Positions 7,542 to 51,100 of a stretch of DNA of 64,000 bases are shown here, one piece after another. Numbering within the stretch: position 1 is the first letter of the stretch; each line of letters starts with the position of its first letter. Both the position numbers and the translations under genes were made by a program. The stretch lies in NCBI GenBank assembly GCA_963698225.1, contig CAVOPW010000018.1, forward strand, positions 8,972 through 72,971, in the 5' to 3' direction. The notes under the pieces are model-generated. The model was not told the origin of the DNA, did no database searches, and worked only from the letters and a program-made list of their open reading frames with translations. Origin of the DNA: an uncultured bacterium. Its GTDB lineage: Bacteria > Zixibacteria > MSB-5A5 > CAIYYT01.

Positions 7542-7591
7542 TCATGTGAAGTGAGCCGGGGAAGCGACCCAGTTTCCCTGCTTGAAATGGC

Positions 7592-7634: not shown

Positions 7635-7724
7635 GGTTTGCTTCTCTCGCCGGCACATCGACCTGTGTGACCGACAGCACGCGCAAAAACCGTCGCGTGG
7701 TGACAAGGCGACGAACGCCGGCGG

Positions 7725-9323: not shown

Positions 9324-9372
9324 GTTGACGTGTTCCAGGTCCCGCAAAAGTCTACCAGTATGTACCGGCCCA

Positions 9373-10234
9373 TTATGTCAACTGGCTTTCGCGGAGCAGG
9401 CGCTCGACGACACTGGCCGTTGCCAGGAAGCAGCACGTTCAGGCTCCCCGACCGAAACCCCTGGACATCGATCGTCACGAACTTGAACCCGAGTTCCTGC
9501 AGACAGCGGGCTACCTGCGGTCGCAGATCTTCGGACATCAGCCGAGGCAGATCCTCCAATGGCACCTCGATCCGGGCCAGATCGCCCTTGTGATACCGCA
9601 CACGCACGGTCCCGAACCCGCGCTGCCGCAAAAACTGCTCCCCTCGGTCAATCATCGACAACCGCTCGGCCGTTACCGCTTCTCCGTAGGCAATCCTGCT
9701 CGACAGGCAGGGGGTGGCCGGCTTGTCCCAAATCGGCAGCTCCCAATGTCGCGCCAAGGCCCGCACGTCTTGTTTGGTCAGCCCGCAATCAGCGAGTGGA
9801 CTGACCACTTCCTGCTCGCCCGCGGCGCGCATGCCGGGCCGATAGTCGAACAGGTCGTCCGCGTTGGCCCCATTGATGATCAGCGCAACCTGCAGTTGCT
9901 CCCGCAGATCCTTGATCCGCCAGTAAAGTTCGTTCTTGCAGTGATAACACCGATCGGGCGAATTTTCGGCATAGTCCGGCAGTTCCATCTCGTTCGTCGC
10001 GATTTCCACGTGCCGTATCCCAATGAGTTGCGCCATGCGGCGCGCTTCTTCCAACTCCCCTTCGGCCAGACTGGGACTGACCCCGGTCACGGCAACGGCA
10101 CGCTCGCCCAGCGCCAAAGCGGCCGCTTTGGCCACCACGGAGCTGTCCACGCCGGCCGAAAAAGCGACCGCACAGCTCGGGAGCCGCTGCATGTACTCCA
10201 AGAGCCTGTCCCGTAAGATTGCGACGTCCGACAT
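9373..10234 (-). CDS. larE: LarE-family ATP-dependent sulfur transferase
   Basis: PP-loop AFSAGVDSS, RCYHCK, DYRPG, PCLSSRI and GFRSGSLN. C-terminus placed at the TAA at 9373 by assuming one frameshift. Confidence 0.88.
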
Positions 10235-10527
10235 CCAAACCGCCCTCTCTGATGGACAAAAAAAGGTAAACCCTCCACCGCAATGCCGTGGCGATACGTT
10301 TTGTGAGAGCCCGCAGTACCAAATGTGGGAACCTGAACCCCGGGTTGTGTGATCCAGAAACGAGAACGGCCCTGAGACCCTTCTCACTGGCTATACACGC
10401 GGCCAGAGCTGTAGTCAGTTCCCGGCGGACTTCTTATCGGCTCCCCAAAAAATGGTAGCGACAACACGCACATAGCAGAGGATTTACCCGTAATCCCTGT
10501 CGGGATCACCAGCGCATCGTAGCAGCG

Positions 10528-10567
10528 GCGACGCGGCGAAGCAAGCTTCGCGGCTTCGCCGCGTCGC
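10528..10567. repeat. 15-bp perfect stem-loop (terminator or REP)
   Basis: GCGACGCGGCGAAGC-N10-GCTTCGCCGCGTCGC, followed by a purine-rich tract to ~10627. Confidence 0.7.
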
Positions 10568-10679
10568 AGAGAGGAGTGGGGAGAGAGGTGAGAGGAGAGC
10601 GGCAGGGAGAGGGGAGCGGGAGAGAGCGCGCGGGTAGCCGGGACGCCCGTGTCTCTGCCGAGGACGGCTACGGACTGCG

Positions 10680-11952
10680 CTACGCGTTCTGCGACTCCCG
10701 CACCATGGGCTCCATCACCTTCGTATTTCGCTCGACAGCCAATACGATAGTCCGTTGCTCGGCACCATCGCGGCTATTGGCCACAACGGGCAACAACTGG
10801 CGGCGATCGGGCATGCTCATGCGGACCGTAAACGTACCATCCGAGCGGAGTTTGACTGGTTCGCCTGCGAGTGTCACGTGGGACCCGGCTTTCGTCTTGC
10901 CGTAGATGATCATTTCGGCATCGACGGTGAAGTCGAAATCCTTGTCCCGCCGCAAGACCTGCTCCATTCCGGTACCGCAGCGGGCCACCAACGGAGTCCC
11001 CATCGGCCGCCGCAGACGCTCTTCGAACAGTTCCTGCAAGTCGCCGCCGACCGCGTTCTCCTCATATCCACCGCTCTGCGCGAAAATCTTCTCGTAGTTC
11101 TCCGCGATATCGGTCCAATGCTCATCCATGACGTCGCTACTGCCCGGCTGCGGCGTGGTAACGACATTGCTCCGGGCCAACGCATAGAACCGGCCATTCT
11201 CGGCCAGATACCCCAAGTCGACTCGGAAACTGTTGGGGGAGTCCTGGATGTCGATGTACCAGTTCTTCACGCCACCATGAATGGGAATATCCCGCGCCAA
11301 CGATTCGGTGGTCGAGGTCGTGGACCCCGCTTCCACGTGCATCAACCGCAACGTCGGCTCGCAGGTGTGCCAATGCTCGGCCAGAGCGGCCCGAGCCCGC
11401 GCAACACTCTGTCGCGTGACATCCCAGCAGGCCTGCAACCAATACGGGTCGCGCACGAGCAACACGACCCGGTCCTTACCCGGAACGGGCTTGGGCGACG
11501 GCTTGATGTGGGGCGGCTTGACGGGGGCCGGCCTCGGAGCCACGGCGACGACCGGCTTCTCCACTTTCTTTGCCTTCTCCTCGACTTCCGCCGCCAAGGC
11601 AGTGGCGTAAGAAAGATCCTTCCGCTGTTCGCGCATTCGTTGATCTTCTGAATCTTGCGGAGCACACGGGCATCGGTTGGTTTGGGCGGCGGAATCGTTG
11701 GCGGCTTTCCGAGCTCCGTTCGGCGGGGTGGTCGATGCGACTGACCAGCTTCGGGGCCACCGCCACCGCCTGCTTGCGGCCCGCCGTCTTGGCCCGCGAC
11801 GAGCCCGAGGCGGCTTTCGCCTTGGAGGCCTTGACCAGGGCACGCACCAATTGGTCCTTGGTCATCGCGTGAACACCTGACAAACCCATTTTCCGGGCCA
11901 GTGAAGTGAGATCTTTTACTGTTTGCGAGCGGAGGTCAGCTGTGGTAATCAA
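10680..11952 (-). CDS. Rho_N-like domain plus DUF4912 protein (frameshifted)
   Basis: N-terminus LRSQTVKDLTSLARKMGLSGVHAMTKDQLVRAL (Rho_N-like); DRVVLLVRDPYWLQACWD...WYIDI...LARSNVVTTP (DUF4912). Confidence 0.8.
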
Positions 11953-12512
11953 AGGGTGCACCCTGTCTCAACGGATTCGCTGCAACAACCACGTCGTGTC
12001 CGTCACGCCGAACTTCTTCCGTGAGCCAACACATCGGCATCTGCCCCACGTCTGCCCAGTGGGGGTGCCAGGACCATCGAAATCGGGTCAAAGATTCGAT
12101 CTGTCCCGTCGTACGTCGCGTTGCAGGACGGCGGCAACGCGAGTATCGGGCACCCTTCGTGCTACTTCAAGGGTTTGCATTCTTCAGCAGGTGGGTTCTG
12201 GAAATTCCTGATAGTCCGAGTCTAACCAAAATGTGTAAAAACGCAACGCACACAACCCAATAAGGTGGTATCGCATCGGACCGCGGTTCGATACAACCTC
12301 TGCGATTCCGGCACTTACGTCGCAAATCGGCAATGCCTGCCAAGGCGGTTCCTGGAAATCTTGCCCGATTCGGTGCCCCATCGCCGTTCCATTAATGGCA
12401 AACGAAACCCCGAAAAGGGCCCCTTACGGAATTCTGCAAACCGTTTTCTTGCGAGGGTTTAGGTCATTCCGGTTCGTCGTCCATGAAATCTCTCGGCGCG
12501 AGGTGCGGTCGG

Positions 12513-12541
12513 TTGACCGGGCGCGACAGGTGGGATAGATT
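12513..12541 (+). promoter_or_regulatory. Putative sigma70 promoter of the atp operon
   Basis: TTGACC-N17-TAGATT about 120 bp before the first atp gene. Confidence 0.65.
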
Positions 12542-12663
12542 TTGGACTTTCAGTAATACTCGCAGGGGAAGAGGCTGGCAACAGCCGCCTCATTCGGTGC
12601 AAGTGATTTACATTAAACGATTTATAGCTAGTTGCGGACGCTCTGAAATAGTCAGTTAGCGAA

Positions 12664-12907
12664 GTGAAACCGACTCCAGACGATCGAGCGCCGCTGGCGC
12701 GGGCCTACGATCGGGCCACGCGTGGGATGGCTGTCGCCCTGGGGATGGTCGTGCCGGGACTGGTTGGGCTACTACGTTGACACGAAACTGGGAACCCGAG
12801 CACTGCTGACAATCCTGGGTTTCGCGTTGGGAGTGACTTACGGAATCTGGGAGCTCGTGCGGATGGGACGCCGACGATCTCGAGACCACGATGACGTCGA
12901 TCATTGA
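12664..12907 (+). CDS. atpZ: AtpZ/AtpI-family small ATP synthase accessory protein (frameshift)
   Basis: VKPTPDDRAPLARAY...MVVPGLVG / YYVDTKLGT...GFALG; first gene of the atp operon. Confidence 0.75.
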
Positions 12908-13007
12908 TTCGATCATTTAGTTATGGAGTGTGGCAGGATCGAGCGGGGTTGGAACACCGACCGATTGGCGCACGCGTCAGCGGAGCACCGCCGTGTTACC
13001 GGGGTGG

Positions 13008-13407
13008 GTGAGGAACCTGACAGGTCAGTCATTACTGGTCTGTGGTTCTCTTGTTGTTGACCGCCCTCGTGGTCGTGCCCGGCGGTTACGTCGCATATGG
13101 TTGGGCCGGGGTTCTCAGTGCCAGCGTGGCGGGAGCGACGTGTTTGGCGGGAGGCCTCTTGGCATGGGTGCTGGTTGGGATGTTAAATGGTCCCAGCAAT
13201 ATGGTGCCACGGGTACTGCTGGGGATGTTCCCGCGGATGGGCTTGCCCTTGGCCGCCTGCATGCTTGTTTACTTGCAGAACGGCCGTTTGGCGGCGGCCG
13301 GGTTTGTGTACTACATCCTGGCTTTTTACTTTGTCATTCTGGTGGTCGAGACGGTTTTGCAGGTCGGTGACCTCCAGCAACAATCGGCCGAGAAATCGAC
13401 GGTCTAG
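13008..13407 (+). CDS. atpI: ATP synthase I-chain-like membrane protein (frameshift near 5' end)
   Basis: Four hydrophobic segments; lies directly before atpB. Confidence 0.65.
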
Positions 13408-13411
13408 CACT

Positions 13412-14809
<1,398 letters not shown>

Positions 14810-14867
14810 GTCGGACGCGACGCGCCGCTGCGTATCGGGTACCTGTTCATTTCTGGATAAGCGACGG

Positions 14868-15476
14868 ATGGCCATGAGACTCTCACGATTCATCACCTCG
14901 GCGTCAGTCCTGTTTGGGGCCTGGCAAGGCGGCACTCTGGTGGCCTGGGCATCAGAGGCGGCCGAATCCTCGAACAACAGTGTCAACCCACTGTCGATCG
15001 ATCCCGATCTGGCGTGGTTCACGCTGGTGGTGTTCGTGCTGCTCCTGATGGTTCTGACGAAGTTCGCCTGGAAGCCGCTGATGAAGGGGCTGGAGCAGCG
15101 TGAACAGACGATCGCGAAGATGATTGACGACGCGAAACGCAACAACGAGGAGGCCGCCGCCAAGCTGCTGGCTTACGAGCAGAAACTGGCGGAGGCGGCC
15201 ACTGAGGCGCACGAAGTGGTTGTGCGAGCGCGTCGCGATGGGGTGGCAGCGGGCGAGAAACTGCTCGAAGATGCTCGGGCCAGCGCCGATCGTGAACGGC
15301 AGCGAGCGTTGGCCGATATCGAAGCCGCCAAGAATGCCGCGGTGCAGCAGATTGCGGATCAGAGTGCCAATCTGGCTTTCTCGTTGGCGCGGAAGCTGAT
15401 CCACAAAGAGCTGCGGCCGGAAGACCATGCTGCCCTGATCCGTGAGTCGCTCGAACAGTTTCCCAGTGAGAACTGA
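14868..15476 (+). CDS. atpF: F0 subunit b
   Basis: DPDLAWFTLVVFVLLLMVLTKFAWKPLMKGLEQRE followed by a coiled coil. Confidence 0.95.
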   Translation: MAMRLSRFITSASVLFGAWQGGTLVAWASEAAESSNNSVNPLSIDPDLAWFTLVVFVLLLMVLTKFAWKPLMKGLEQREQTIAKMIDDAKRNNEEAAAKLLAYEQKLAEAATEAHEVVVRARRDGVAAGEKLLEDARASADRERQRALADIEAAKNAAVQQIADQSANLAFSLARKLIHKELRPEDHAALIRESLEQFPSEN

Positions 15477-15481
15477 AATCC

Positions 15482-16108
15482 ATGGCCGAGTCCTCACAAC
15501 GCCCATCCTTTGATAGTTCCCGGGAACGCCTGGGTGCGGTCTACGCCAAGGGGCTGCTCGGTGCCACCGAAGCGGCCGGGGTGACCGAACGCGTCTTGCC
15601 CGAACTCGATTCGCTCGTCGATGATGTGTTGAATCGGGTCCCGAATTTCGAGCAGTTCCTGTCCTCGCCGCGGATGCGACTGGACGAGAAGTTGCGTGTC
15701 TTGGACTTGGCGTTTGCCGGTCGCATGACTCCGCTGCTGCTGGACTTTCTCAAAGTCGTGGCGCGTCGAGGAAGATTGGACTGCCTGCGCGAGGTGCGGG
15801 CCGCCTCACGAAAGCAGCTGAATATCCTGCGCGGTCGGCTGGAGGTAACGGTCCAGACGGCCACGCCGTTGAAGCACGGCACAGCACAGTCAGATCGAAC
15901 AACGGCTGGCCGTGGCCTTGGGACAGGCCGATCGATCTGACGTGCTCGCGTGCGCCCGGAATTGCTGGGCGGATTGCTGGTCCGAGTCGGCGACACGGTC
16001 TTCGATGGCAGCCTCGATAACCGCCTCGAAACCATGCGCGTGCAATTGACGAATCGCACGACGCAAGTGATCCGCGATTCGCTGGAACGATTCCTGATTA
16101 CCGATTAG
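15482..16108 (+). CDS. atpH: F1 subunit delta (frameshift near 15880)
   Basis: AVYAKGLL...FLKVVARRGRL...; C-terminus PELLGGLLVRVGDTVFDGSL in another frame. Confidence 0.9.
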
Positions 16109-16135
16109 TAGCTGGCGACCCCAGAGAGGTCTTCG

Positions 16136-17668
16136 ATGAAATTCAATGCTGACGAGATTGCCTCGGTCATTCAGAAAGAGATCGAGCATTACGAGAGCCA
16201 ATTGGATGTCCGAGAGGTGGGCACGGTGCTGGATGTCGGTGACGGCATCGCGCACGTGTATGGACTGTCCAACGCCATGTCCGGCGAGATGGTGGCGTTC
16301 CCGAGCGGCGTCAACGGCTTGGTGTTCAACCTGGAAGAGAACAGCGTCGGCATCATCATTCTCGGCGACTTCCTGGACATCAACGAGGGTGACGAGGTCC
16401 GCGCGCTGGGCAAGCTGTTGTCGGTGCCGGTGGGTGACGCCGTCATGGGACGCGTGCTTGATCCGCTCGGCAACCCACTCGATGGCAAGGGCCCCGTGGC
16501 CACGACCGATCGTCGTCCGGTCGAATTCCTTGCTCCTGGCGTAGCGGAACGGCAGCCCGTGTGCGAACCGCTGCAGACCGGCATCAAGGCCATCGATGCC
16601 ATGACGCCGATCGGACGCGGACAGCGCGAACTCATCATCGGCGACCGCAAGACTGGCAAGACGGCCATCGCCCTCGACGCGATCATCAATCAGAAACATT
16701 CCGGCGTGAAGTGCTTCTACGTCGCGATCGGCCAGAAAGATTCCTCGGTGGCCGGCGTGATCAAGACGCTCGAAGACCACGGCGCGATGGACTACACGAC
16801 CGTCATCGTGTCGGGTGCCGCGAGTCCCGCGCCGATGCAGTACATCGCTCCGTACGCCGGCACCGCGATGGCCGAACATTTCATGTTCCAGGGCGAGCAT
16901 GCCTTGATCATATACGACGACTTGTCGAAGCAGGCCGTGGCCTATCGCCAGTTGTCTCTGCTCATGCGGCGTCCACCGGGCCGCGAAGCGTATCCGGGCG
17001 ACGTGTTTTACTGCCACAGCCGCCTGCTCGAGCGATCGGTGAAGTTGAGCAAGGCCTTGGGGGGCGGTTCGCTGACCTCGCTGCCGATCATCGAAACGCT
17101 CGAAGGCGAAGTCTCGGCCTACATCCCCACCAACGTGATTTCGATTACGGACGGCCAGATCTACCTCCAGCCCGACCTGTTCTTCGCCGGTGTTCGACCC
17201 GCGATGAACCCCGGCATTTCGGTCTCTCGCGTGGGTGGTGCCGCGCAGGTCAAAGCGATGAAGAAAGTGGCCGGCGGCCTGCGACTCGACTTGGCCTCGT
17301 TTCGTGAACTCGAAGCGTTCGCCCAGATGGGAACCGAACTGGACAAGGCCACGCAGTCGCGACTCGACCGCGGCTATCGCATGGTCGAACTGCTCAAGCA
17401 GCCTCAGTACAGGCCGATGCATGTGTTGGATCAGGTCATGAGCATCTTCGCCGGCACGCGCGGGTACATGGACGACGTGCCGGTCAAAGACGTGCGAACC
17501 TGGGAAGAGGCTTTCCTGGCCTACATGCACGAGAAACGGGCCGATGTCGTCGGAGAGCTCACCAAGGCCAATGACATGACCGATGCGATTGCCACCAAGC
17601 TTGTCGCGGCGATCCAGGACTTCAAGGCGGGCTATAAGCCGGTAGCGGGCCGGTCGAAGTCGGCATAG
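16136..17668 (+). CDS. atpA: F1 subunit alpha
   Basis: Intact 510-aa ORF with GDRKTGKT and [13 protein letters not shown]. Confidence 0.98.
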
Positions 17669-17690
17669 CAGCGAGTAAGGCGGGATTGCC

Positions 17691-18578
17691 ATGGCAAAAG
17701 CTCGGACACTGGACAGGCGACGCGGGTCGATCCGCAACATCCGCAAGATCACGCGGACGATGGAATTGATCGCCAACGCGCGATTCAAGAAGGCCATGGA
17801 CCGCGCAACGTCGGCCTCCGCTTACACCAAGCGGATTACGCGTCTGGTCGCCGACCTGGCCCAAAGCGGTCTCGATTTGCGACATCCCTTGCTGGAAGAT
17901 CGACCGCAGCCCCAAAAAGCGGTGATGCTCGTGCTGACCGCCAACCGCGGAATGTGCGGTGGGTTCAATTCCAGCGTCCTGCGGCTGGCGTTTGAACATC
18001 ACGCTCGACTGACCGACAGCGTGCCGGAAGTGATCACGGAAGTCTCGGGCCGCCGCGGCATCTCGGCCCTGAAGTACCGCAAAATCAACCCGGACGAATC
18101 GTATACGCACTTCGAGGATCGCCCGACTTATCAAGATGTCGAAACGCTGGCCAATCGTTACCTGGATCAGTTCATCACCCGTAAGATCGATCGCGTCGAC
18201 GTCCTCTACACCCGCTTCCTGTCCATCGCCAAGCAAGAGGCCGTCGTCGAGACCTTGCTCCCCCTGAGCTCGCTGGAAGGACTCTCGGAGGAAGAAGAAG
18301 TGGTCGGGCGCGGCACGTCGATGTACGAGTTCCTGCCCTCGGCCGAGAGCATTTTGCGCGAGGTGGTCCCGACCAGTTTTCGCGTCAAGTTGTTCAAGTG
18401 CTTCCTGGACGCGGCGGTCAGCGAACACATTGCACGTATGGTGGCGATGAAAGCAGCTACGGAAAACGCAGACGAGATCATTCGTCAGCTGTCGATGACC
18501 TACAACCGGGCTCGGCAGTCGCAGATTACCGGCGAGATCATGGAGATTATCGGTGGGGTGGAGGCCTTGCAGTCGTAG
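17691..18578 (+). CDS. atpG: F1 subunit gamma
   Basis: KITRTMELIA, NRGMCGGFN and YNRARQSQITGEIMEI. Confidence 0.97.
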   Translation: MAKARTLDRRRGSIRNIRKITRTMELIANARFKKAMDRATSASAYTKRITRLVADLAQSGLDLRHPLLEDRPQPQKAVMLVLTANRGMCGGFNSSVLRLAFEHHARLTDSVPEVITEVSGRRGISALKYRKINPDESYTHFEDRPTYQDVETLANRYLDQFITRKIDRVDVLYTRFLSIAKQEAVVETLLPLSSLEGLSEEEEVVGRGTSMYEFLPSAESILREVVPTSFRVKLFKCFLDAAVSEHIARMVAMKAATENADEIIRQLSMTYNRARQSQITGEIMEIIGGVEALQS

Positions 18579-18617
18579 CACCTCGAAGAGGTTCCCCGGC
18601 CATCTGCCAATAACATT

Positions 18618-18661
18618 TGTCAAACACGGTTCTGTCAAACACGGTTCTGTCAAACACGGTC
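18618..18661 (+). repeat. 15-bp tandem repeat x3 in the atpG-atpD spacer
   Basis: TGTCAAACACGGTTC twice, then TGTCAAACACGGTC. Confidence 0.9.
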
Positions 18662-18693
18662 TGGCAACACAGTTCTGGGCTGCGAGTGCCTGA

Positions 18694-20720
<2,027 letters not shown>

Positions 20721-26095: not shown

Positions 26096-27162
26096 CTAGT
26101 CCTCTTCCTCTTCTTCCAGTTTCGCCTTGGCGATGATCTCCTGCATCACGTTTGGCGGCATGACGTCGTAGTGGCTGAAGTCCATCGTGTAGCTGCCCTG
26201 CCCGCCGGTCATGCTGGAGAGCGTGCGCGCGTAGGTGGTGACGCTGCGGAGCGGCACTTCACAATGGACCGTCTGCAGTCCGCCGCCGGCCGAATCGGCA
26301 CCGGACACGCGTCCGCCGCGGCTGGACATGTCGCTGTACACGTCGCCCACGTTATTCTCGGGAATCGTCACGTCGAGTTTCACAACCGGCTCGAGCAACG
26401 AAGGCTTCGCCTGCTGGAACACATTGCGGAACACCATCGAGGCGGCCGTCTTGAACGCGGCTTCCGAGCTGTCGACCGGATGATGCTTGCCGAAGTGGAC
26501 TTCGACACCGATATCCTGCACCTGATAACCGGCGATCACACCGCGGCTCAATCGATCACGGAACCCCTTCTCGATGGCCGGCAGGAAGTTACCCGGAATC
26601 ACGCCGCCGACGACCGAGTCGATCCAGACGAAGTTGTTCGTCTCGTCGTAGTGATACTCCTTGAGCGACGGGAAGTTCGCCTTGGTGCAAAACTCTTCCA
26701 TGTTCGTGCCGCGTGGCAGCGGAAACATGCGGATATGCACTTCGCCGAACTGGCCACGGCCGCCCGACTGCTTCCTGTGTCGGTAGCTGCCTTCGGCCTT
26801 GATCTGGATCGTCTCGCGGAACGGGATCTTCGGTTCCTTCGTGTCGACTTCCAGTTTGTCGCGCCGAGCGAGGCGTTCGCGAATCACCATCAGGTGCAAT
26901 TCACTCATGCCAGTGATGACGAGTTCCTTGGTCTGGGCGTCGCGATCGAGGCGGAACGTGGGGTCTTCATCCACGACCTTATGCGATCGCGCCGGACAGC
27001 TTTGTTTCGTCACCGCGGCTCTTCGGACTGACGGCCAAGCCAACCATGGGGGTCGGGAAGCTCATCAAGGGCAGCCGGTAATCGCCCAGCGACGAGTTGG
27101 TGGTCAGGTCCTCCATCTTGGCGATCGCGATGAGATCACCGGGGCCGGCGACGTCGAGCTTG
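26096..27162 (-). CDS. fusA: Elongation factor G paralogue, domains II(end)-V only; 5' part replaced by archaeal DNA
   Basis: EDPTF, GMSELHL, PFRETI, RKQSGGRGQFG, LLEPV and SMTGGQGSYTMDFSHY. Confidence 0.9.
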
Positions 27163-27166: not shown

Positions 27167-27479
27167 ACGGATGCTCGGCATATTTTTCATGGTACTGGTC
27201 AGTAAACGATCCTGCAATGTTGCGAGCGAGCGACAGGCCTTCCTCTTCAAGCTGTTCGCGGGAAAGGAGCGGATCGAAAAGCATGAAAATATCGAGATCA
27301 CGGTCGCCTTTCACCCAGGTGTGCCGGGCGATGGAACCGACTACCATCGCTTCTGCCCTGCCACTTTGGGCGATTGCTGCCAGCAGGCGCTTTGCCAGAC
27401 CCCAGACATGTTCCTGTTCCTGCCGGGTCGGTCGGAGATCCAGAAGAACGGTCTCTTCCAGCGGCAGCCTGGTTACCAA
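27163..27479 (-). CDS. cca: Archaeal (class I) CCA-adding enzyme, N-terminal ~105 aa only
   Basis: VVGSIARHTWVKGDRDLDIF nucleotidyltransferase motif and YAEHPY. Confidence 0.9.
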
Positions 27480-28015
27480 TTCAGCACCTCGAGGTCTTCA
27501 TCAGACCGGCCCTGAGGCAGCAGCGTACTTTTCTTAAGTACCATACCGTGGATTGTGCAACTGCCGTAACCTGTCTCTGCTCAGCTCTTTAATGACGGAA
27601 AAGAGTGACGGGATCCGGAGATTTTACCCGTGCGACGGTTGCATGGGGAGTAAACCTGCGGGTCTCCCGTGCAAACCCAAGTGGAGCAAGTGCATCCTCA
27701 ATCAGCGTGAATACTTTCTCTCCCTCCCCCGCATCATCAATGGCGCACCAGACCGTATGCGGGCGCCGTGGATTATTTACCGTCACCATTCCTGCTGTAA
27801 CAGGAAAGGGAATGAAGGTGATCTTTTTCAGGGCTTCAATAACTTGTGGAAGGTTCTTCTCATCAATCTCACCGAGGAACTTTGCCGTTACATGAATATT
27901 CTTCGGCTCAACAAATGTCAGACGTGCCCGGCATCCTGCGGAGCACCTGCTGGGCCGCGGCCAGCTGGTCTTTGATTTCCTCCGAAAGCTCCAGTGCAAT
28001 AAACACCCTGACCAT
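27473..28015 (-). CDS. thpR: RNA 2',3'-cyclic phosphodiesterase (frameshifted)
   Basis: MVRVFIALEL, HVTAKFLGE, FTPHATVARVK (two HxT motifs) and LKKSTL. Confidence 0.9.
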
Positions 28016-28144
28016 TAGGGTACTATTATTTCATACCACTACTAATGGTAATCGATTGCCGGAGTGATTGGGCTCAGGAGCATAAACCAAGTTTTTTTTA
28101 CGGGCAATTCCAAATTCATAGATGACAGACCAGAGGGTGTTTTT

Positions 28145-28414
28145 GTGCCGGAAAAATTGCAGTTGATTGTGTATACACTTGAGCATTGTCCGAATTGTGA
28201 CATTCTGAAAGGATTTTTAAAAAAAGGAGGGTATAAATTCATTGAACGGGATCTCTCAACTGCGGAGTCCCTTACCGAGCTGCGAATGAATGGAATCTTT
28301 GTTAATGAAGCTCCGGTCTTACAAAAAAGTTCGGATTTTTATACCTCTGCAGACATTTTTCCCCACGGCGAGCTGGATGCAGGGCACGTATCAAAACTAA
28401 TTTCAGGTGAATGA
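28145..28414 (+). CDS. Glutaredoxin/NrdH-like redoxin
   Basis: VYTLEHCPNC...EAPVL; its stop abuts the nrdD start. Confidence 0.85.
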   Translation: MPEKLQLIVYTLEHCPNCDILKGFLKKGGYKFIERDLSTAESLTELRMNGIFVNEAPVLQKSSDFYTSADIFPHGELDAGHVSKLISGE

Positions 28415-30599
28415 ATGGCGCGGCCGGAGACAAAACAACTGACGTTTGACGGAATTACCGTACCTGTCCTCCCTTTCGTCCGTACATCTGACGGGCATAT
28501 CATCGAATGGAACCGCGATCGAATTGTCCACCAGATTGTTCAGGAAACAAAGCTTGTCGAGACATTCTACGGCTATGAAGGGGCTGACGAATTGACCGCT
28601 CAGGATATTGCGCTTCAGGTTGAAAACCGCATCAAGAATATGGGTCTTAAATCACTTTCCGGTCCACTCATCCGTGAGATTGTCAACATCACGCTGCTTG
28701 AGAAGGGTATGGTGCAGTACCGCAATGTCTCCACCCGTGTCGGTACTCCGGTTTATGATGCACACCAGATTGATGTCGGGAGGGGATTTGAAGCACACGA
28801 CAACGCAAACCTCCAGGAAAATGCCGAGACTTCACATAAGAAGAAAGCAGACAAAATCTCAAAGGAACAATATCTGCTCCAGCTCCCACCCGACCTTGCC
28901 GATCATCACCTGTCCGGCGAGATGCACATCCATGACCTCGAGTATTTCGGTACGCGCCCGTTCTGCCAGGACTGGGACCTGCGCTATTTTTTCTATTATG
29001 GCCTGATGCCTGACGGCAATGGCACAAAGGCTTCAGTCGCTGGTCCTGCGAAGCGTCCGGAGGTTGCAATCCTCCATGCAGTAAAGGCACTCGGATCCGC
29101 CCAGACTAATTTTGCCGGTGGGCAGGGTTATTACAATTTCCTTACCTTCCTGGCTCCTTATATGGAGGGAATGGGGTATAACGAGATCAAACAGAATATG
29201 CAGATGTTTGTCTATGAAATGACTCAGATGATGGTAGCCCGTGGAGGTCAGCTCGTCTTCTCTTCAATCCAGCTCTCACCGGGTGTGCCGACTCTCTGGC
29301 AGGACAAACCATGCATTTATAAAGGAAAGATCTGGGACGGCAAATCAGCACCCCTTCGCACGTATGGTGAGTTCGAGCGTGAGGTGCGATTGCTCTTTAA
29401 AGCCCTCATGGAGGTAATGCTCGAGGGAGATTACTGGGGCAAACCCTTCAACTTCCCAAAGCCCGAGATCTCTATCGAACCGGATTTCATGAATGAACGT
29501 GAAGAGTTCAACACGAAAAACCCGGACCTTCCAACGTTCCAGGAATTATACCTGATGACCTTTGAACTCGCTTCGAAGTTTGGTACACCCTATTACGATA
29601 ACCAGCTCCGGCGTACCGCGGAGCCGGTAAAGGGATTTCCTGTTACCAGTGCTGTGCATATCAGTTTTCTACGGTGGCAGACAAAGATTCTGATTTTGAT
29701 AAGAAGATGTATTTTGAGGATGGCAGGCATTTCTCGATGGGCTCCTGGCAGGTTGTTTCCGTAAACTGCCCCCGTGCCGCATATAATGCAGAAGGAGATG
29801 ATACCCGCCTTTTTGCAGAACTCAAGGCGCTCATGGATGTCGCGGTGGATATTTTCAAGATCAAACGCCGATGGATGGACCTTATCCGGGCTAACAGCCG
29901 GATGCCATTTGCAATGCAGCGCCCCAAGGACCCGAACACAGGAGAACGTGGCGCACTTGCTGTCGATCTTGAAGGACTGGTATATACGATTGGTGTCGTC
30001 GGTGTCAATGAGATGGTGCAGCACCACACGGGTAAGCAACTCCACGAATCAAAAGAAGCATTCAGGCTTGCCATACGTGCGATGACAGAGATGGAGTCGG
30101 TATGGTCGCGAACTTTCCGCAAAGAATGACATGACCATTGCCCTTGCCCGTACGCCGGGCAGAGACAACCGGGTAAAGGTTTGCGGTTGCCGATCTGCTC
30201 GATCGCCGGTATCACGATTTTGCCGTAAACGTGATTAAGGGAGATATCGAAGAAGGTCTGGAAATGCTGGGCAAGAGCCGTGATCTCCCTATATATTATA
30301 CGAATGGCACCCATGTGGCACCGGGGCAAATGTCCCGCTCACCAAACGCATGGAAATCGAGCATGTATTCTTCCCCATTGTTGATGGGGGTAACATTTTC
30401 CATATCTGGCTGGGTGAAGCACGTCCGGATCCACGTGGACTCATGGACATGGCGATGAAGCTTCTGCCGCAACACCCAGATAGGATATTTTGCATTTACC
30501 CGGGATATTACGGTCTCGCTCCGCCAGTTCCACGAGATACGTTCGTCAAAGAAATCCATTACCCCTTATATCCCATCAGATTTTCCTGTCAAGGTTTAA
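28415..30599 (+). CDS. nrdD: Class III anaerobic ribonucleoside-triphosphate reductase with ATP cone (frameshifted; C-terminal radical domain not seen)
   Basis: ATP cone, MHIHDLEY, FAGGQG, CYQCCAY finger loop, YYTNGTH, FFPIVDGGNIFHIWLGE and GYFAFTRD, then TAA at 30597-30599. Confidence 0.9.
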
Positions 30600-30780
30600 T
30601 GGGAAAATTCTTATTTACAGAGACTCGAGGAACAGGCAATGTGCCTGTCCCTGCCTAATCGATACCGGCGATTGAATTTCGTTCACTAGGCGTTCCGCCG
30701 ATTATTTCCGGTTACACTGTTGAATGAATCAGCACGGAAGCAAGGATCAATACCAGTAAATTGGTGTTTTCCGACCTATT

Positions 30781-30990
30781 GAAACCATAAGATTTCAACA
30801 AATTCGAATCACCTATTATCGGAGGGGATAGTGCATGTCCCCCAACCGCCCCTGCGCTTTGCGATTGTGTTGTATAACCTTCTCTGGAATTATCGCTCCG
30901 AAGGGGATGCCACAGCGGCGGGGGCGGAGGCATTACGTGCAGTAGCCCAGAAAGAGCGCTGAAAAAAATTGTGAGGATTTCGACAGAGCC
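30781..30990 (+). mobile_element. MITE-like repeat, right half
   Basis: Closely matches 41929-42143 and ends in CAGAGCC. Confidence 0.7.
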
Positions 30991-31059
30991 TGTTTTCCCT
31001 CAAACATCATAATTTCCTGAAATAGCGGGATTAGTTCTGAAATCAGATTTATGATGAAC

Positions 31060-31170
31060 CCCTCCACCCCCGAAGGGACGCCCCCGCGGCGGATCAATAA
31101 CCAAAAATTGAACGACTCTAAACCACCTGACCCGCCGTGCTTCGAAGAAGCCCTGAGGCGGATGATCCTC
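31060..31170 (-). mobile_element. MITE-like repeat, left half, inverted
   Basis: CCCCGAAGGGACGCCCCCGCGGCG is the reverse complement of ~41836-41860. Confidence 0.6.
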
Positions 31171-31260
31171 ATCAGGTAGTGCGGATTTTTCATCTGTTTG
31201 GATTCACAGGGAACCTGAGATCATGAAAATAAGGAATCAGAACGGGTACCCCAAAAAATA

Positions 31261-32891: not shown

Positions 32892-34378
32892 TCAATGCCT
32901 GAAGTATCGGACACCGGTAAAAATCATCGCCATATGAAGCCTGTTCGCCGCATCGATTACCTCTTTGTCGCGGATAGATCCGCCCGGTTGAATAAGTGCT
33001 GTAACTCCTGCTTCAGCCTGCAACTTCGAGGGTGTCTGCAAATGGCAGAAATGCATCTGAAGCGACAGCAGACCCAATCAGCGATGATCGGGCTTTCCCG
33101 ACTGCAATTTTTGCAGCATCCACTCTGCTCATCTGACCGGCACCAATTCCGAGAGTACACTTCTGATCGGCAAAGATAATGGTATTGCTTCTGGCATGCT
33201 TACACACCTTCCAGGCAGAGCTGAACCGCCCGCAGACTCATCGGGAGTCGTGTCTCGATCGGTGATCACCTTCCAGTGCTCCTGATAAGGGGGCGTTCGC
33301 TGAACAAGGACTCCTCCATCAATCGATCGGATTTCATCAGAACCGGATTTTTCCGGCAGAATCAGCACACGCATGTTTTCCTTTTTCCTGATGATGGCAA
33401 GGGCTTCTTCAGAAAATGACGGGGCAACGAGGACTTCAACAAATGTTCCGGCAATCTCTTGACTACGTTTTTTTTGATTTCACGGTTGAAGCAGACGACA
33501 GATCCGTAAGCAGAAACGGGATCGACTTCACGGGCATCGATGTAGGCCTCGGCTATGTTTGTGCCGAGAGCGACGCCGCAGGGATTATTATGTTTTATAA
33601 TGACAGCAGAAGGATCTTCAAATTCCCGGAGGAGTGCCACCCCGGCATCTACATCAAGGTAATTGTTATAGGACATCTGCTTTCCCTGAAAGGGTATGGC
33701 TCCTGCAATACCAGACTCCCCGTACACCGCAGCCTCCTGATGCGGATTTTCCCGTACCTCAGTGTTCTGCCATGACTGAACTGAACGGTATATGTGGTGG
33801 GAAACGAATCACTGAGTCCGAACAGGTAGTTGCTGATTGCACCATCATAGGCTGCCGTTCTGGCAAACGCTTTTTTTGCGAAAGCAAGGCGCTGATCGAG
33901 AGAAAGTTGCATTTCCCCGAATTGCTGTAATTAACGATGGATAATCCTCAGGGTCTACGACAACTGCAACATTTTTGAAATTTTTTGCTGCTGCCCGGAT
34001 CATCGCAGGTCCACCGACATCGATAAACTCGATCAATGATTCGCAGATCCATGTGCTGCCCTGCCATCTTCTCAAAAGGGTACAGGTTTACAACGAGAAC
34101 ATCAATCCGGTTAATACCGTGCTTAGCCATTACCAGATCATCAATCTGCCTTCTTCCCAGGAGACCCCCGTGCACTTTCGGATGCAGCGTCTTGACCCTG
34201 CCATCCATCATCTCGGGAAAACCGTGTAGCTGGAAACCTCAGTAAACTTTATCCCGGTTTCGCAAGTGCCTTTCCCGGTCCCTCCTGAGCTCATAATATT
34301 ATATTTTTGGCGCGAAAGTTCCTCGGCAAGCTCGACGATACCGGTCTTGTCCCAGACCGAGAGTAGTGCCCACTTCAT
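32892..34378 (-). CDS. purH: Bifunctional AICAR transformylase/IMP cyclohydrolase, bacterial type (many frameshifts)
   Basis: [60 protein letters not shown] and FTGVRYFRH. Confidence 0.93.
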
Positions 34379-34806: not shown

Positions 34807-35368
34807 ATGGAACATCAAACGGGATGTACTATGGACGACGCAGAAATCAGTACAGGACAAGAAAGAGCACCTGATCAGGGAGGAGAAAACTGCCTGACGG
34901 AATGTCCAACGTGTGCAGCCGGCCTGGAAAGACAGAAGACCGCGTATGCTGAATTAAATGACCAGTTCCTGCGTCTTGCGGCGGACTTTGAAAATTTCAA
35001 AAAACGCTCGGTACGCGAAAGGGAGTTTTTTGTCTCTCTTGCAAACGAACGATTTGCAATTGACATTCTTGAAGTACTGGATAATTTTGATCGTGCAATA
35101 CAATCTGATGATACCCATCTGCGCAAAGGAGTGAACCAGATCCAGCACTCCTCATGACCGGTTATTGCGTAATGGGATCACTCCTGTGGATCCACTTAAA
35201 AAACAATTTAATCCCGCGGAACATGAAGCAGTCGCTCATATTGCGTCTGACGAACCCGCGGGTTCGGTGGTAGATGTAATAGCCCGTGGATACCGGATGA
35301 ATGATAAGGTAATCAGATACGCAAAAGTAGCAGTCTCAAAAGGAAATCAGAAAGACCAGGAGGTATAA
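34807..35368 (+). CDS. grpE: Nucleotide exchange factor GrpE (frameshift near 35155)
   Basis: [13 protein letters not shown]; FNPAEHEAV...[18 protein letters not shown]. Confidence 0.93.
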
Positions 35369-35370
35369 AA

Positions 35371-37221
<1,851 letters not shown>

Positions 37222-41792: not shown

Positions 41793-42143
41793 GGCTCTTG
41801 AGAGGCCAGGGGCGGAGTTTTCAGGTAATTGAAGCGCCGCGGGGGCGTCCCTTCGGGGGCGGCGCAGGTCATCGCAGTAGCGGGATTGGCACTTCCCGAA
41901 ATTACTGGAATTGTGCAATTTTCATAGAGAAACCCTAAGTTTTCAACAAATTGTAAAGCACCTATTTACGGAGGGGACAGTGCCTGTCCCCCCGAACCGC
42001 CCCTGCGCTTTGCGATTGTGTCGTATTACCTTCTCTGGAGTTATCGCTCCAGGGGGATGCCACAGCGGCGGGGGCGGAGGCATTACATGCCGTAGCCCCC
42101 AAAAGAGCGTTAAGAAAAATATTTTGAGGATTTCTCCAGAGCC
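41793..42143 (+). mobile_element. ~350-bp MITE-like element with imperfect terminal inverted repeats
   Basis: Left end GGCTCTTGAGA; right end reverse complement GGCTCTGGAGA. Both halves recur at 30781-31170. No ORF. Confidence 0.65.
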
Positions 42144-45100: not shown

Positions 45101-48100
45101 TAAAGCACTGGCAGTATCCGGCGAGAGCTCAATCACCCGGTCAAAGGAATCGATTGCCTCCTCAAATTTACCGATGCTTGTAAAAACTCTTCCCCGCTCA
45201 AGGTAAGCCCTGGGATCATCAGGCCTGAATTTTATACTGTTATCGAACGCATCGATTGCATCTTCGGGACGATCCAGATAAGTAGTACTACACCTTTCTC
45301 ATACCAGATCTCCCCATCAGTATTCCGGAGTTCAAGCGCTGCGTCAAAAGCACGTCCCGCCTCATCATATCTACCAAGATTAGCCAGGGATATTCCCCGT
45401 AAATATCTCGGTTCATACAGGTCCGGGAGGACAGATGAGGCATGCGCGAAAATTTCCTGTGCTTCTTCGTGCCTTCCCAGGGTTGAAAGGACCCGACCCT
45501 TCTCATTCAGGAGCTGCCCATTTTCAGGAGCCAGAGTCAGGGCAAGATCAAAAATATGCAGCGCATCGTTATAACGTGCGAGCCGCGAAAGTGCGCATCC
45601 TTCTGAGTAGAGCAATGTGATATTCCGCGGGTCGTTCTGACGTGCTTTTTCAAATGCGGAAACAGCATCCTCGTCTTTGCCCAGATGTTCAAAAGCGACG
45701 CCTTTATGGAACCATGCATCGGAATAGTCTCCAATCCGGGAAAGAACCTCATCGAATGCCAGGAGTGCCTCTTCGTACTTCCTGAGATTTTCGAGGGAAA
45801 GCCCCTTATGGAAGTGGGCTTCGGCAAAATCAGGATCGAGAACAAGAGATCGTGAAAATGAAGATTCCGCTTCCTCATACCTGCCGAGCATCGCATACGC
45901 GAGCCCCTGTTCGAAATGCCCGTCCCTGCTCTGATCATCAATTGCAAGCGCTTGAGAGAATGCAATGACCGCCTCTTCATGTTGTTTCAGCTTTGAAAGC
46001 GTACAAGACCCTTGTAATAACAGGCATCAAATGCACGGTTATCAAGATTGATTGCCCGGTCAAATGCTGTAGCTGCTTCTTCAAATCTCATGAGATTGAA
46101 GAGGATGATGCCCTTGTTAAACCAGGTCTCGTAGCTGCCCGGCATCAAGTTCGAGAGCCGCATCGAATGCCTGGAGTGCCTCATCGGGTCGGTCCAGGTT
46201 TTTAAGGGAGAGACCCTTGTGATAATATATCGGTGCCTGTGATGGTTCAACGGCGATTGCCCGGTCAAATGATACAATGGCATCCTTATCTTTCGAGAGC
46301 CGTGCAAATGCGAGTCCCTTGTCATAGAAGGCACTGACAAACCTGGGATCGATGGTCGTAGCCTGTTCAAAAGCTTCGACTGCCTGGAGATCCTTTCCAA
46401 GTTTTGTCAGGGCGATACCCTTGTCATACCAGGCATTTGCATATCTGGGGTTAATGGCAAGCACCCGGTCATAGGATGAGACGGCCTCTTCATGTCTGCC
46501 AAGTTCTGAGAGTGCGATTGCCCAGTTCGTACCACCCGTAGGCGGAACCGGGTTTTATATCCAGGGCGCGGGTGAGGGCGTCCAGTGCGGGTTCAAACCT
46601 CCTGAGCGAGAGCAGCGTACTTCCTTTCTAGCCACGCCGGTGCACACGCCTCATCGTGCGCAAGAACCTGGTCAAAGCAGGCAATTGCATCTTCCGGGTT
46701 CTGGAGTTCTATGTATGTCTTTTCCCTTCCGGTACCATGCTGTTGTGTTGTCCGGTGCAAGGGAGGTTGTCCTGTCGAATGCTTCGAGTGCCTCTTCAAA
46801 CCGTCCCAGTTCGAAAAGCACCCTCCCCTTGAGCAGCCAGACGTCTGCGACACCGCTTTCAAGGCTAAGTGAGGATTCGAGTGCCCCGAGTGCCTCTTCA
46901 AACCTGTGGAGAGATGCCAGGATGATGCCTTTGTTAAACCAGGTCTCGTAGTTGCCGGCATCGCGTTCGAGAGTGGCATTGAATGCCCCGAGTGCCTCAT
47001 CGGGTCGGTTCAGGTTTTTGAGGGAGAGACCCTTGTGATGATATATCGGAGCCTGTGACGGTTCAACGGCGATTGCCCGGTCGAATGAAGCAATAGCCTT
47101 CTTGTCTTTCGAGAGCCGTGCAAATGCGAGCCCCTTGTCATAAAACGCATGGACAAACCTGGGATCAATAGTCGTAGCCTGTTCAAAAGCTTCGACAGCC
47201 TGGAGATCCTTTCCGAGTTTTGTCAGGGCGATACCCTTGTCGTACCAGGCATTTGCATATCTGGGGTTTAAGGCAAGGACCCTGTCATACGAAGAGACAG
47301 CCTCTTCATGTCTGCCAAGTTCTGAGAGTGCGATTGCCCGGTCAGTACCACCCGTAGGCTGAACCGGGTTTTATATCCAGGGCACGGGTGAGGGCATCCA
47401 GTGCGGGTTCAAACCTCCTGAGCGAGAGCAGCGTACTTCCTTTTCTCAGCCACGCCGGTGCACACGCCTCATCGTGTGAAAGAACCTGGTCAAAGCAGGC
47501 AATTGCGTCTTCCGGGTTCTGGAGTTCTATGTATGTCTTTCCCTTCCGGGACCATGCTGTTGTGTTGTCCGGTGCAAGGGCGGTTGTCCTGTCGAATGTT
47601 TCGAGTGCCTCTTCAAACCGTCCCAGTTCGAAAAGCACCCTTCCCTTGAGCAGCCATACGTCTGCGACACCGCTTTCAAGGCGAGTGAGGATTCGAGTGC
47701 CCCGAGTGCCTCCTCAAACCTGTGGAGAGATACCAGGACGGCTCCTTTGTTAAACCAGGTCTCGAAGCTCGCCGGCATCAAGTTCGAGTGCTGCATCGAA
47801 AGCCAGGAGTGCCTCTTCAGGGTGTTTCAGGTTTTTGAGAGAGAGTCCCTTATGATAATATGCCGGGGCCAGTGAGGATTCAACGGCAATTGCCCGGTCG
47901 AATGAAGCAATGGCATCCTGGTCTTTCGAGAGCCGTGCAAATGCGAGCCCCTTATCATAGAATGCATTGACAAACGTGGGATCGATTGTCGTTGCCTGTT
48001 TAAAATCTTCGATGGCCTGGGCATCCTTGCCGAGTTTTGTCAGGGCGATACCCCTGTCGTACCAGGCATGTGCAAATCCCGGGTTAATGACAAGCACCCT

Positions 48101-51100
48101 GTCATAGGACGAGATGGCCTCTTCATGTCTGCCAAGTTCTGAGAGTGTGATTGCCTGGTTGTACCACCCGTAGGCAGAACCGGGTTCAATATCAAGGGCA
48201 TGGACAAGGGCGTCCAGTGCGGGTTCATACCGGCCGATGGATAATAGCGTACTTCCTTTTCTCAGCCACGCCGCGTGCACACGCCGCATCGTGTGCAAGA
48301 ACCTGGTCAAAGCAGGCAATTGCATCTTCCGGGTTCTGGAGTTCGATGTATGTCTTTCCCTTCCGGTACCATGCCGTCGTGTTGTCAGGTGAAAGGGCGG
48401 TTGTCCTGTCGAATGCTTCGAGTGCATCTTCAAACCGTCCCAGTTCGAAAAGCACCCTTCCCTTGAGCAGCCATACGTCTGCGACATCGCTTTCAAGGCT
48501 GAGTGAGGATTCGAGTGCCCCGAGTGTCTCCTCAAATCTGTGGAGAGATGCCAGGATGGTGCCCTTGTTAAACCAGGTCTCGTAGTCTGCCGGCATCAAG
48601 TTCGAGAGCCGCATCGAATGCAAGGAGTGCCTCATCGGGTCGGTCCAGGTTTTTAAGGGAGAGACCCTTGTGATAATATATCGGTGCCTGTGATGGTTCA
48701 ACGGCGATTGCCCGGTCAAATGATACAATGGCATCCTTATCTTTCGAGAGCCGTGCAAACGCGAGTCCCTTGTCATAGAAGGCACTGACAAACCTGGTAT
48801 CGATGGTCGTAGCCTGTTCAAAAGCTTCGACTGCCTGGAGATCCTTTCCAAGTTTTGTCAGGGCGATACCCTTGTCATACCAGGCATTTGCATATCTGGG
48901 GTTAATGGCAAGCACCCGGTCATAGGATGAGACGGCCTCTTCATGTCTGCCAAGTTCTGAGAGTGCGATTGCCCGGTCGTACCACCCGTAGGCTGAACCG
49001 GGTTTTATATCCAGGGCGCGGGTGAGGGCGTCCAGTGCGGGTTCAAACCTCCTGAGCGAGAGCAGCGTACTTCCTTTGCTCAGCCACGCCGGTGCACACG
49101 CCTCATCGTGCGCAAGAACCTGGTCAAAGCAGGCAATTGCATCTTCCGGATTCTGGAGCTCTATGTATGTCTTTCCCTTTCGGTACCATGCCGTCGTGTT
49201 GTCAGGTGAAATGGCGGTTGTCCTGTCGAATGCTTCGAGTGCCTCTTCAAACCGTCCCAGTTCGAAAAGCACCCTTCCCTTGAGCAGCCATACGTCTGCG
49301 ACACCGCTTTCAAGGCTGAGTGAGGATTCGAGTGCACCGAGCGCCTCACCAAACCGAAGAAGTTTCACCAGGACAGATGCCCGCTGATAGAGTGCAGGAG
49401 CATTATCCGGTTCCTTTTCCAGCAAAGTATTGAATGCATCAAGAGCTTTTTTCATTTTTTCCAAGGCTGACAAACGAGAGACCAGACTGGAATATCGCAT
49501 CTGTCAGGGAATTGTCAAAGATAAAAGCCTGACTGAATGACCGGATTGCCTTTTCGTATTTTGCTGTGGCTTTCAGCACGAGTCCTTTATGATAATGTGC
49601 ATAAGCGTGCTCCGGTACATTTTCAAGAGTATAGTCGAACGCTTTGATGGCGTCTTTGTACCTGCCTGTGCGGAAGAGAGCAAGACCTTTATTATATGCT
49701 GCATCGGTAAAGGAAGGGACCAGGGCAAGAGTTTTTTCATAAGCACTGATGGCGTCATCGTCATACCCGAGTGAAGACAGTGCAAGACCCCGGCCATACG
49801 CTGCATCAGCGCTACCGGATTTCAATTCGAGTGTTTTATCAAATGCCAGAATCGCATCGTTGAAATACTTAAGCTTATTAAGGGCGTGTCCCCTCGCTAA
49901 CCAGATGTCAGGATCGTCCGGAGTAAGTTCGATTGAACGGTTCAGGGAAACCAGAGCGTCTTTGTTGCGTCCGGCTGCCATGAGGGCATTCCCGCGGTGG
50001 TAGTGGAGATAACCATTTTCAGGTCCGATGGCAAGTGCCAGATCGAATGCTGCAACCGACTCCTCATATCGCCCGATAGTCTCGAGTGCGACTCCTTTTT
50101 TGTATGCTGCGTTCTGCATACCCGGGCTGAGTTCAAGGGCACGTTCAAACGCAGGCACCGATTCATCAAACCGTTTTAGTGTACAAAGGACATCTGCTTT
50201 ATTGTACCATGCGACTGCACATGAATCGTCCAGAGACGATGCCATCCCGAACGCTTCAAGGGCATCCTCAAACAGTGACATCTGCTTATAGCTGATTCCG
50301 CGGTAATACCATGCAGTGGTATGCTGTTTGTCAAGGACTATCACCTTATCAAACGCTGAGACTGCCTCTTCCCACCGTTTGAGGTGAAGCAGGGCTTTTC
50401 CACGATGAATAAGTGCAAAAATGTTCTGGGGTTCACGCCTTAGCGATTTCCCGAAAGATTCAACTGCTTCCTTAAATCGGAACAACTTATAGAGTGAATA
50501 CCCCTTGCATGAAAGGAGACCTGAATCCGTGGTGTCCTGTTCCAGTGCCCTGTCCAGTGCAATTACTGCGTCTTGGTACCGGGCAAGTTTTACTAAAGCA
50601 ACACCCCTTCCCCGGTGTGCCCGGGTATTTTCCGGATCAAGGAGGAGAGTTGCGTCGAACTCTCTGATTGCGTCCTCATACCGGGCAATCTTTTCAAGAA
50701 TCTCACCCTTGACAAGATGGGATACCACGTCGGTTGAATCAAGTTCGAGGGCGCGATCGAACGAAGCGATCGCATCCTCATTTCTGTCGAGCCGGGAGAG
50801 CACCAGTCCCTTTTCAGCATGTAAACGGGAGTTATCCAGACCCATCTCAATACATGCATTGAATGCATCCAGGGCAGATTTCCGGTTGGCCGAGATGGGA
50901 ATATGAAAGCCCCTTCTCAAAAAGGATCTCACCGGAATCAGGTTTGAGAACAAGAACGGCATCGAATGCTTCTATTGCCCGGTCGTATTTTTTAATGATG
51001 AAAAAAGATCTCCCCATCTCTTTCCAGGCTTCTATTCGGGATGGGTTAAGAGCCACGGAACGGGTGAAAGCCTCAATGGCATCAGAATATTGACGTAAAC

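Follow-up and report, generated by a model that had tools for sequence, protein, structure and literature searches.

The question raised by this locus is whether an nrdD gene that stops before the zinc site and glycyl-radical loop of a class III ribonucleotide reductase (RNR) is a damaged gene or one part of an enzyme made in two pieces. The stretch in which it lies, referred to here as the window, comprises 64 kb (positions 8972-72971 of contig C18, CAVOPW010000018.1) of an assembly deposited as an uncultured bacterium (GCA_963698225.1; 3.55 Mb in 24 contigs). An earlier note on this DNA had proposed either that the enzyme is naturally split, its radical domain being supplied in trans, or that its tail was lost next to a miniature inverted-repeat transposable element. 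Our analysis argues for the first of these: we put at about 0.8 the probability that the window gene encodes the core subunit of a naturally two-piece, NrdD3-type class III RNR, and that this design is found throughout the Methanomicrobiales. The genes concerned and the region that follows them are these:

28145-28414, + strand: NrdH-like redoxin gene, 89 residues, GTG start, CPNC active-site motif, TGA stop at 28412-28414
28415-30599, + strand: nrdD core, class III RNR barrel; QCCA finger loop, N-terminus weakly matching an ATP cone
30516-30599, + strand: short tail of nrdD, SLRQFHE..., 27 residues and stop, standing where the zinc site and radical domain would be
30600-31260, no strand assigned: intergenic stretch with no coding remnant of a radical domain

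The redoxin matches Pfam Glutaredoxin with an E-value of 4e-4, and translation together with orthologue comparison places the ATG of nrdD at 28415, directly behind the redoxin stop codon; this is the NrdH-type redoxin that the earlier note had seen beside nrdD, and the same pair of genes occurs in relatives. In its last frame nrdD reads ...GYFAFTRDITVSLRQFHEIRSSKKSITPYIPSDFPVKV as far as the stop codon at 30597-30599, the reading ending ...FTRDITVSLRQFHE...DFPVKV at 30599. As had been claimed, the stop is reached without a zinc site or radical loop: neither CxxC nor RxxGY occurs in the three forward frames of 30465-30781, and the NrdD-type motif R[IVT]xGY is missing from all six frames of the window. 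Two candidates for a lost domain were dropped, namely 'KSITPYI' (near 30560) as a decayed SRITGY, the orthologues reading ISPW, ISEW or VAQW with no conserved glycine, and a frameshift-hidden radical domain 3' of 30599, which is present in no frame up to 30781 nor elsewhere in the window. The assembly holds no second, intact copy of nrdD. The spacer 3' of nrdD is 662 bp long in the window and 178 bp in one relative (L004), and a repeat of approximately 210 bp lies at 30781-30990, with one further copy at 41929-42143 (86.6% identity); inverted ends, which a miniature inverted-repeat element would have, were looked for in the repeat at 30781 and not found, and that label is unconfirmed.

A stitched 728-residue translation of the window gene, used as a search query, retrieved 2413 homologues. 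The best 120 of these are 719-732 residues in length and 85-91% identical over 99-100% of the query, and the named ones among them belong to Methanoregula, Methanoregulaceae or Methanomicrobiales; the stitched core is about 91% identical to 727-residue Methanoregula proteins across 100% of its length. The earlier note had pointed to the Methanomicrobiales NrdDs as the comparison to make, and in alignments the same truncation and tail are indeed conserved: the orthologues examined from this order (726-750 residues) all share the ending ...FTRD(I/L)TVSL(R/K)QF..., without CxxC or RxxGY, so that the on-chain Cys4 zinc site and the radical motif are missing both in the window, in all frames, and in every orthologue examined. 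The stop falls 20-45 residues past FTRD(I/L)TV in Methanoregula, Methanolinea, Methanoculleus sediminis, Methanospirillum, Methanosphaerula subterraneus and Methanomicrobiaceae, while in the window tail the first 7-8 residues are conserved and the remainder is variable. Orthologue cores match the NrdD model PF13597 with 439-453 bits over model positions 1-510, a common gene order of CCA-adding enzyme, LigT, redoxin, nrdD, a 139-residue gene and a helix-turn-helix gene links the window to its relatives, and in a scan of one genome per species at least 579 genomes encode a relative of the core. For the window gene against its relatives, the ratio of non-synonymous to synonymous substitution (dN/dS) comes to 0.025 in either half, intact relatives giving 0.020-0.028 among themselves. 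A short tail that is conserved across the order and under purifying selection refutes the suggestion that the tail was lost beside the repeat.

Many nrdD cores of the order (among genomes G010-G155) belong to open frames of 1200-2000 codons in which the NRDD match is interrupted (positions 53-263 and 259-510; for example G077:C15:622793-624358 and G139:C137:20287-23280), which suggests that they carry one or two inteins, as called in two further loci (L097 and L100). In one long-read metagenome-assembled genome (MAG) of the Methanoregulaceae (L046, 5707-6001) the redoxin gene is frame-broken and the frame before nrdD is artificially extended to 825 codons.

A phmmer search of the core against PDB sequences gave only fragment alignments (E 1e-13), and hence a comparison of folds was needed to show the full NrdD barrel. 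The AlphaFold model of an orthologue (P0002), with a mean predicted local distance difference test score (pLDDT) of 86.3 and a predicted template modelling score of 0.86, presents a core of about 727 residues with a complete NrdD barrel that ends some 25 residues beyond the last barrel strand; its last 29 residues (699-727) fall below a pLDDT of 50 and are predicted to be disordered. Class III RNRs account for every one of the top 36 Foldseek matches in the PDB (E 3e-27 to 5e-18), those of P. copri, S. thermophilus, T. maritima and T4 among them. All of 25 relatives compared, split and fused, keep cysteine 184 on strand beta-A and cysteines 410, 413 and 414 in the CxxCC finger loop, and the window loop reads SCYQCCAYQF, of which YQCCAYQ is shared by the window and all close relatives. 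Judged from this model and these residues, the core looks catalytically competent. The NrdD3 clade is marked by the finger-loop motif QCCR/A with no upstream methionine (PMC9669993) and its members reportedly work with an NrdH-like redoxin (PMC9176816); on the strength of its QCCA loop and upstream NrdH-like redoxin, the window core would be of the NrdD3 type.

Eight Methanomicrobiales genomes were examined closely with PF13597, and in each of them the model matches twice, once to a large open reading frame (ORF; positions 1-510) and once to an ORF of 127-139 codons far away from it (positions 504-562). The second encodes a protein of about 120 residues with several CxxC motifs and the canonical NrdD glycyl-radical motif ISRVTGYLQDVSGWNAGKQQELKDR, laid out as an N-terminal helix, a CxxC...CPxCG zinc ribbon, MCPLDHCHC, YCPLCG...CPECG and ISRVTGYLQDVSGWNAGKQQELKDRxRY. 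Arg92, Thr94, Gly95 and Tyr96 are invariant in 20 of 20 sequences. Apart from NRDD (positions 504-562), a Pfam scan of these small proteins finds nothing but a double zinc ribbon; a database search yields 347 clusters of them, all the named ones from Methanomicrobiales, under labels such as 'anaerobic ribonucleoside-triphosphate reductase', 'oxidoreductase', 'RPABC4/Spt4' and 'hypothetical'. The earlier note had expected a stand-alone zinc-ribbon/RxxGY frame near nrdG, and was right as to its existence but not its location, the small gene having pyrF on one side and a CbiZ/zinc-finger gene, then RPA-like genes, on the other, away from both nrdD and nrdG. An NrdG2-type activase is encoded at a third, unlinked site in all eight genomes, the TIGR02495 model scoring above its cut-off in seven of them. 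One genome (G011:C1:590703-592373), the sole such case sampled, has a canonical single-chain NrdD (a 569-codon frame, positions 1-560) beside the split enzyme.

Three lines of evidence join these pieces. The first is their distribution over 151 Methanomicrobiales genomes, each at least 80% complete: the core is found in 128, the small protein in 127 and NrdG in 128 (126 with TIGR02495 above its cut-off), all three occurring together in 124 genomes, none in 21 and a partial set in six. The second is their complementarity to fused, single-chain relatives, 66-71% identical, which carry the zinc/radical domain and whose whole length is covered by the core and the small protein taken together. One such protein (P0244, Euryarchaeota) aligns with the core at 69-71% identity up to its own residue 1273, and its residues 1282-1323 match residues 79-120 of the small protein at 71% identity. 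Other fused relatives (P0361, P0273, P0277) show odd radical motifs, SRISTYLQ with threonine for glycine and ALITGY with Ala-Leu for Ser-Arg. The third is a locus of a different subclade (L097) in which small protein, redoxin and core abut as a single operon:

L097, 7436-7756, same strand as redoxin and core: 106-residue zinc-ribbon/RVTGY small protein
L097, 7749-7991, co-directional: redoxin
L097, 8001-11081, co-directional: tail-less core with intein

A quick tree of 104 representative cores implies about six changes between the split and fused states, of which at least four are forced by well-supported branches, and suggests repeated fission. The earlier proposal of a natural split with the radical domain in trans is supported by what these relatives show.

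If the pieces work together as we propose, NrdG would activate the small protein by forming a glycyl radical at its Gly95. The activated protein would then dock on the core, probably with the help of the N-terminal helix and zinc ribbon that it has in addition and of the core's conserved SL(R/K)QF stub, so that the radical loop could enter the barrel beside Cys413/Cys414 of the finger loop. The thiyl radical would then initiate nucleotide reduction, and the NrdH-like redoxin would re-reduce the resulting active-site disulfide, as reported for the single-chain NrdD3-type enzyme of Methanosarcina barkeri (Wei et al., 2015, in the accounts given in PMC9176816 and PMC9669993). The small protein would be an obligate subunit because the cores have no radical domain of their own.

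Several points weigh against a two-piece enzyme. Binding of the small protein to the core, and transfer of the radical, are deduced from sequence comparison. The core, small and nrdG genes are unlinked within Methanomicrobiales, and the functional link between them therefore rests on co-occurrence, complementarity with the fused relatives and one operon in a different subclade; the 21 absences may represent one clade, hence not 21 independent losses, which makes the co-occurrence partly phylogenetic. The model of the small protein has a pLDDT of 69, and Foldseek finds no PDB match to it with E <1, only generic zinc-ribbon resemblances. All eight genomes checked also encode a class II RNR, so the split enzyme need not be essential. 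The window gene itself is a broken frame with six lesions, all within the 3' 45% of its length. Tblastn with an orthologue passes through frames 2, 1, 2, 0, 2 and 0, and PF13597 (cut-off 26.2 bits) matches over model positions 1-492 in three pieces that score 225, 95.9 and 27.3 bits; the assembly divides the core among four frame segments. Aligned with the DNA of five relatives, the window gene shows these lesions:

29606-29608, + strand: lesion 1, one base missing after 29606/29607 in a short T/C run; frame 2 to 1
30099, + strand: lesion 2, extra G; frame 1 to 2
30157, + strand: lesion 3, extra G in a GGG run; frame 2 to 0
30174-30176, + strand: lesion 4, in-frame TAA; the relatives read CAA or CAG here (the Gln of ETTGQRFA)
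30324-30326, + strand: lesion 5, one base missing in a G run (near 30325); frame 0 to 2
30462, + strand: lesion 6, extra T in a TT pair; frame 2 to 0

These lesions bring in the rival that survives best, namely that the window copy is a true, if very recent, pseudogene of its source organism. Six disabling changes within 900 bp, one of them a CAA to TAA substitution that is no homopolymer error, speak for decay. A decaying gene should not, however, show the dN/dS of intact relatives in both its 5' and 3' halves, with no excess of non-synonymous change, and its highly conserved neighbours are frame-broken at a similar density: tblastn with relatives' proteins switches frame twice in LigT, at least three times in a 329-residue gene and twice in a 341-residue gene that is 97% identical to its relatives. 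The segment that holds nrdD appears, moreover, to be a 32-kb island mis-joined mid-gene to foreign DNA, and we consider a genuine pseudogene improbable on these grounds.

The evidence for the island comes from composition, ORFs and tblastn with relatives' proteins. Along the window GC content is about 61% up to approximately 27 kb, about 48% between 27 and 59 kb and about 62% beyond, the rest of the assembly being mostly 52-56% GC; the redoxin-nrdD locus lies inside the 48% block, whose left edge is the following feature:

27043-27060, no strand assigned: junction at which 61% GC non-methanogen DNA meets about 48% GC Methanoregula-like DNA

At about 27,060 an archaeal gene for a CCA-adding enzyme (455 residues) is severed behind residue 140 and meets an EF-G-like gene of other composition, represented by its C-terminal half, so the junction looks like a chimeric join. 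Neither mcrA nor, in a search with the NrdD model, the small radical protein was found in the assembly. The earlier note had found no nrdG nearby, and none is present in the entire assembly, the best TIGR02495 match (28.9 bits against a cut-off of 131) lying on another contig; this is consistent with the binned genome not being the source organism of nrdD. The simplest reading is that a Methanoregula-like segment of about 32 kb and of low quality has been mis-joined into a non-methanogen bin. The five single-nucleotide indels and the TAA are then most likely consensus errors, an explanation preferred to gene decay because of the dN/dS of 0.025, the frame breaks in neighbouring genes and the lack of mcrA, NrdG and the small protein in the assembly. 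Both the frame breaks of nrdD and the probable chimeric nature of the contig had escaped the earlier note. The frame-switching neighbours (LigT and the 329-, 180- and 341-residue genes, at 27476-28057, 32895-33876 and 34822-36527) show one to three switches each; the 180- and 341-residue genes are up to 97% identical to Methanoregulaceae, and the entire methanogen block is rich in indels. Tandem copies of approximately 817 bp, 89-95% identical, also occur in the low-GC block at 46074-49355.

A second rival accepts the core as a functional gene and supposes that it needs no glycyl radical, being a pseudo-enzyme or drawing its radical from elsewhere, for example from adenosylcobalamin, the small RVTGY protein being unrelated to it. 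The unlinked positions of the core and small genes, the class II RNR in all eight genomes and the CbiZ gene adjoining the small gene, a cobinamide-salvage gene fused to a zinc-finger-like domain, would all suit such a view. It leaves unexplained why core, small protein and NrdG share one pattern of presence and absence (all in 124 genomes, none in 21), why the small protein begins where the core stops and is 71% identical to the C-terminus of a fused NrdD3, and why the two are encoded with a redoxin in the L097 operon; the invariant catalytic cysteines and the dN/dS of 0.025 likewise count against it, and we judge it quite unlikely. Still harder to sustain is the idea that the small protein is a spare part of the GrcA/YfiD kind, repairing an oxygen-damaged full-length NrdD and not an obligate subunit. 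In favour of this, the small protein resembles GrcA in being a radical domain on a chain of its own, glycyl radicals are destroyed by oxygen (PMC13450708), and the genome noted above has a canonical 569-residue NrdD as well; but in the sampled genomes, that one excepted, the only NrdD is the tail-less core, in which positions 511-562 are missing, so there is no resident radical domain to replace. The comparison with GrcA made in the earlier note is thus loose: a stand-alone radical domain acting in trans fits the proposal, while a full-length NrdD to be rescued is lacking. Joining of the two polypeptides by a split intein into a single-chain NrdD has the least to recommend it: cores of the order are often intein-bearing, with ORFs of 1200-2000 codons and interrupted matches, and the N-terminal pieces of atypical split inteins can be very short, but the small protein has no Hint or intein match and matches NRDD and zinc ribbon only, no His-Asn followed by a Cys/Ser/Thr junction is conserved among the invariant columns, and the core tail varies in length (20-45 residues) and sequence and is predicted to be disordered.

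Tail-less cores of other subclades were found on virus-like contigs. The L097 contig was deposited as a Bacteroidetes MAG, and its region 5071-19081 encodes a Prim-Pol, an archaeal-type histone-fold protein, ParB and dCMP deaminase, with PTPS, radical-SAM and GTP cyclohydrolase I genes near the operon; it is likely to be a wrongly binned archaeal virus or mobile element. Four further loci, L098, L099, L100 and L101 (8001-11393 and flanks), have a tail-less core amid numerous short ORFs that run in one direction, with genes for an archaeal protease and NosD-like proteins, and L100 and L101 additionally carry a redoxin. A radical-domain ORF was not found within 8 kb on either side of the core in these four, and such elements may depend on the radical subunit of their host.

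Returning to the two-piece enzyme, we offer tentatively, and as something that may well prove wrong, a reason for the design: that it places the radical on a detachable and exchangeable subunit, activated by NrdG off the enzyme, docked on the core, cheaply replaced after oxygen damage and shareable with viral cores that rely on their host. Sharing would be possible because the radical subunit is free-standing, and the design would have arisen several times, given that the core tree needs at least four split/fused changes. If so, viral tail-less cores would use the host's small subunit and activase to raise the supply of deoxynucleoside triphosphates.

To our knowledge, the radical glycine always lies on the catalytic polypeptide in the glycyl-radical enzymes described so far. 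Free-standing radical domains are known, as spare parts, only for formate lyases (PMC13450708, a 2026 review). We found no description of a split class III RNR in the RNR and glycyl-radical-enzyme literature searched, although the primary NrdD2/NrdD3 papers may mention one. An obligate two-polypeptide class III RNR spread across an order would, if true, be a new quaternary design for the glycyl-radical superfamily, and one that can be found in methanogens already in culture, such as Methanoculleus, Methanospirillum and Methanosphaerula. It would provide a natural system in which to ask how an activase reaches a glycine loop buried in a barrel, since here the loop lies on a separate protein of 13 kDa. 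It also bears on annotation, where such cores may pass for truncated or pseudogenised enzymes, and on the evolution of RNR architecture by fission, repeated origin and viral capture.

Among known systems the closest is the single-chain NrdD3 enzyme, which has in common with the split form the barrel, a QCC(A/R) finger loop without the methionine of formate-type enzymes, a redoxin gene beside nrdD and an NrdG2-type activase. The split form differs in that its zinc-ribbon/radical domain is a separate protein of about 120 residues, encoded far from the core, and that protein has acquired a further zinc ribbon as well as an N-terminal helix; the core ends in a short disordered tail. GrcA/YfiD of Escherichia coli is likewise a small stand-alone glycyl-radical loop that is activated and then inserted in trans into the barrel of a partner. 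GrcA, however, rescues a full-length pyruvate formate-lyase whose own domain has been cleaved by oxygen. In Methanomicrobiales the partner lacks such a domain from the start, which would make the small protein obligate, and that protein is homologous to NrdD (Pfam NRDD) and not to pyruvate formate-lyase. In the class II enzyme NrdJa/NrdJb of Pseudomonas aeruginosa the C-terminal zinc-finger part is also a separate polypeptide (PMC4520616; PMC9669993), but that enzyme is B12-dependent, its two genes lie side by side, and there is no radical on the detached part. The class I RNRs offer a parallel in their division into alpha and beta subunits, in which a separate small subunit generates the radical, holds it and passes it to the barrel subunit; there it is a ferritin-like metal or tyrosyl radical acting by long-range transfer, whereas the glycyl loop of the split NrdD would insert directly into the barrel.

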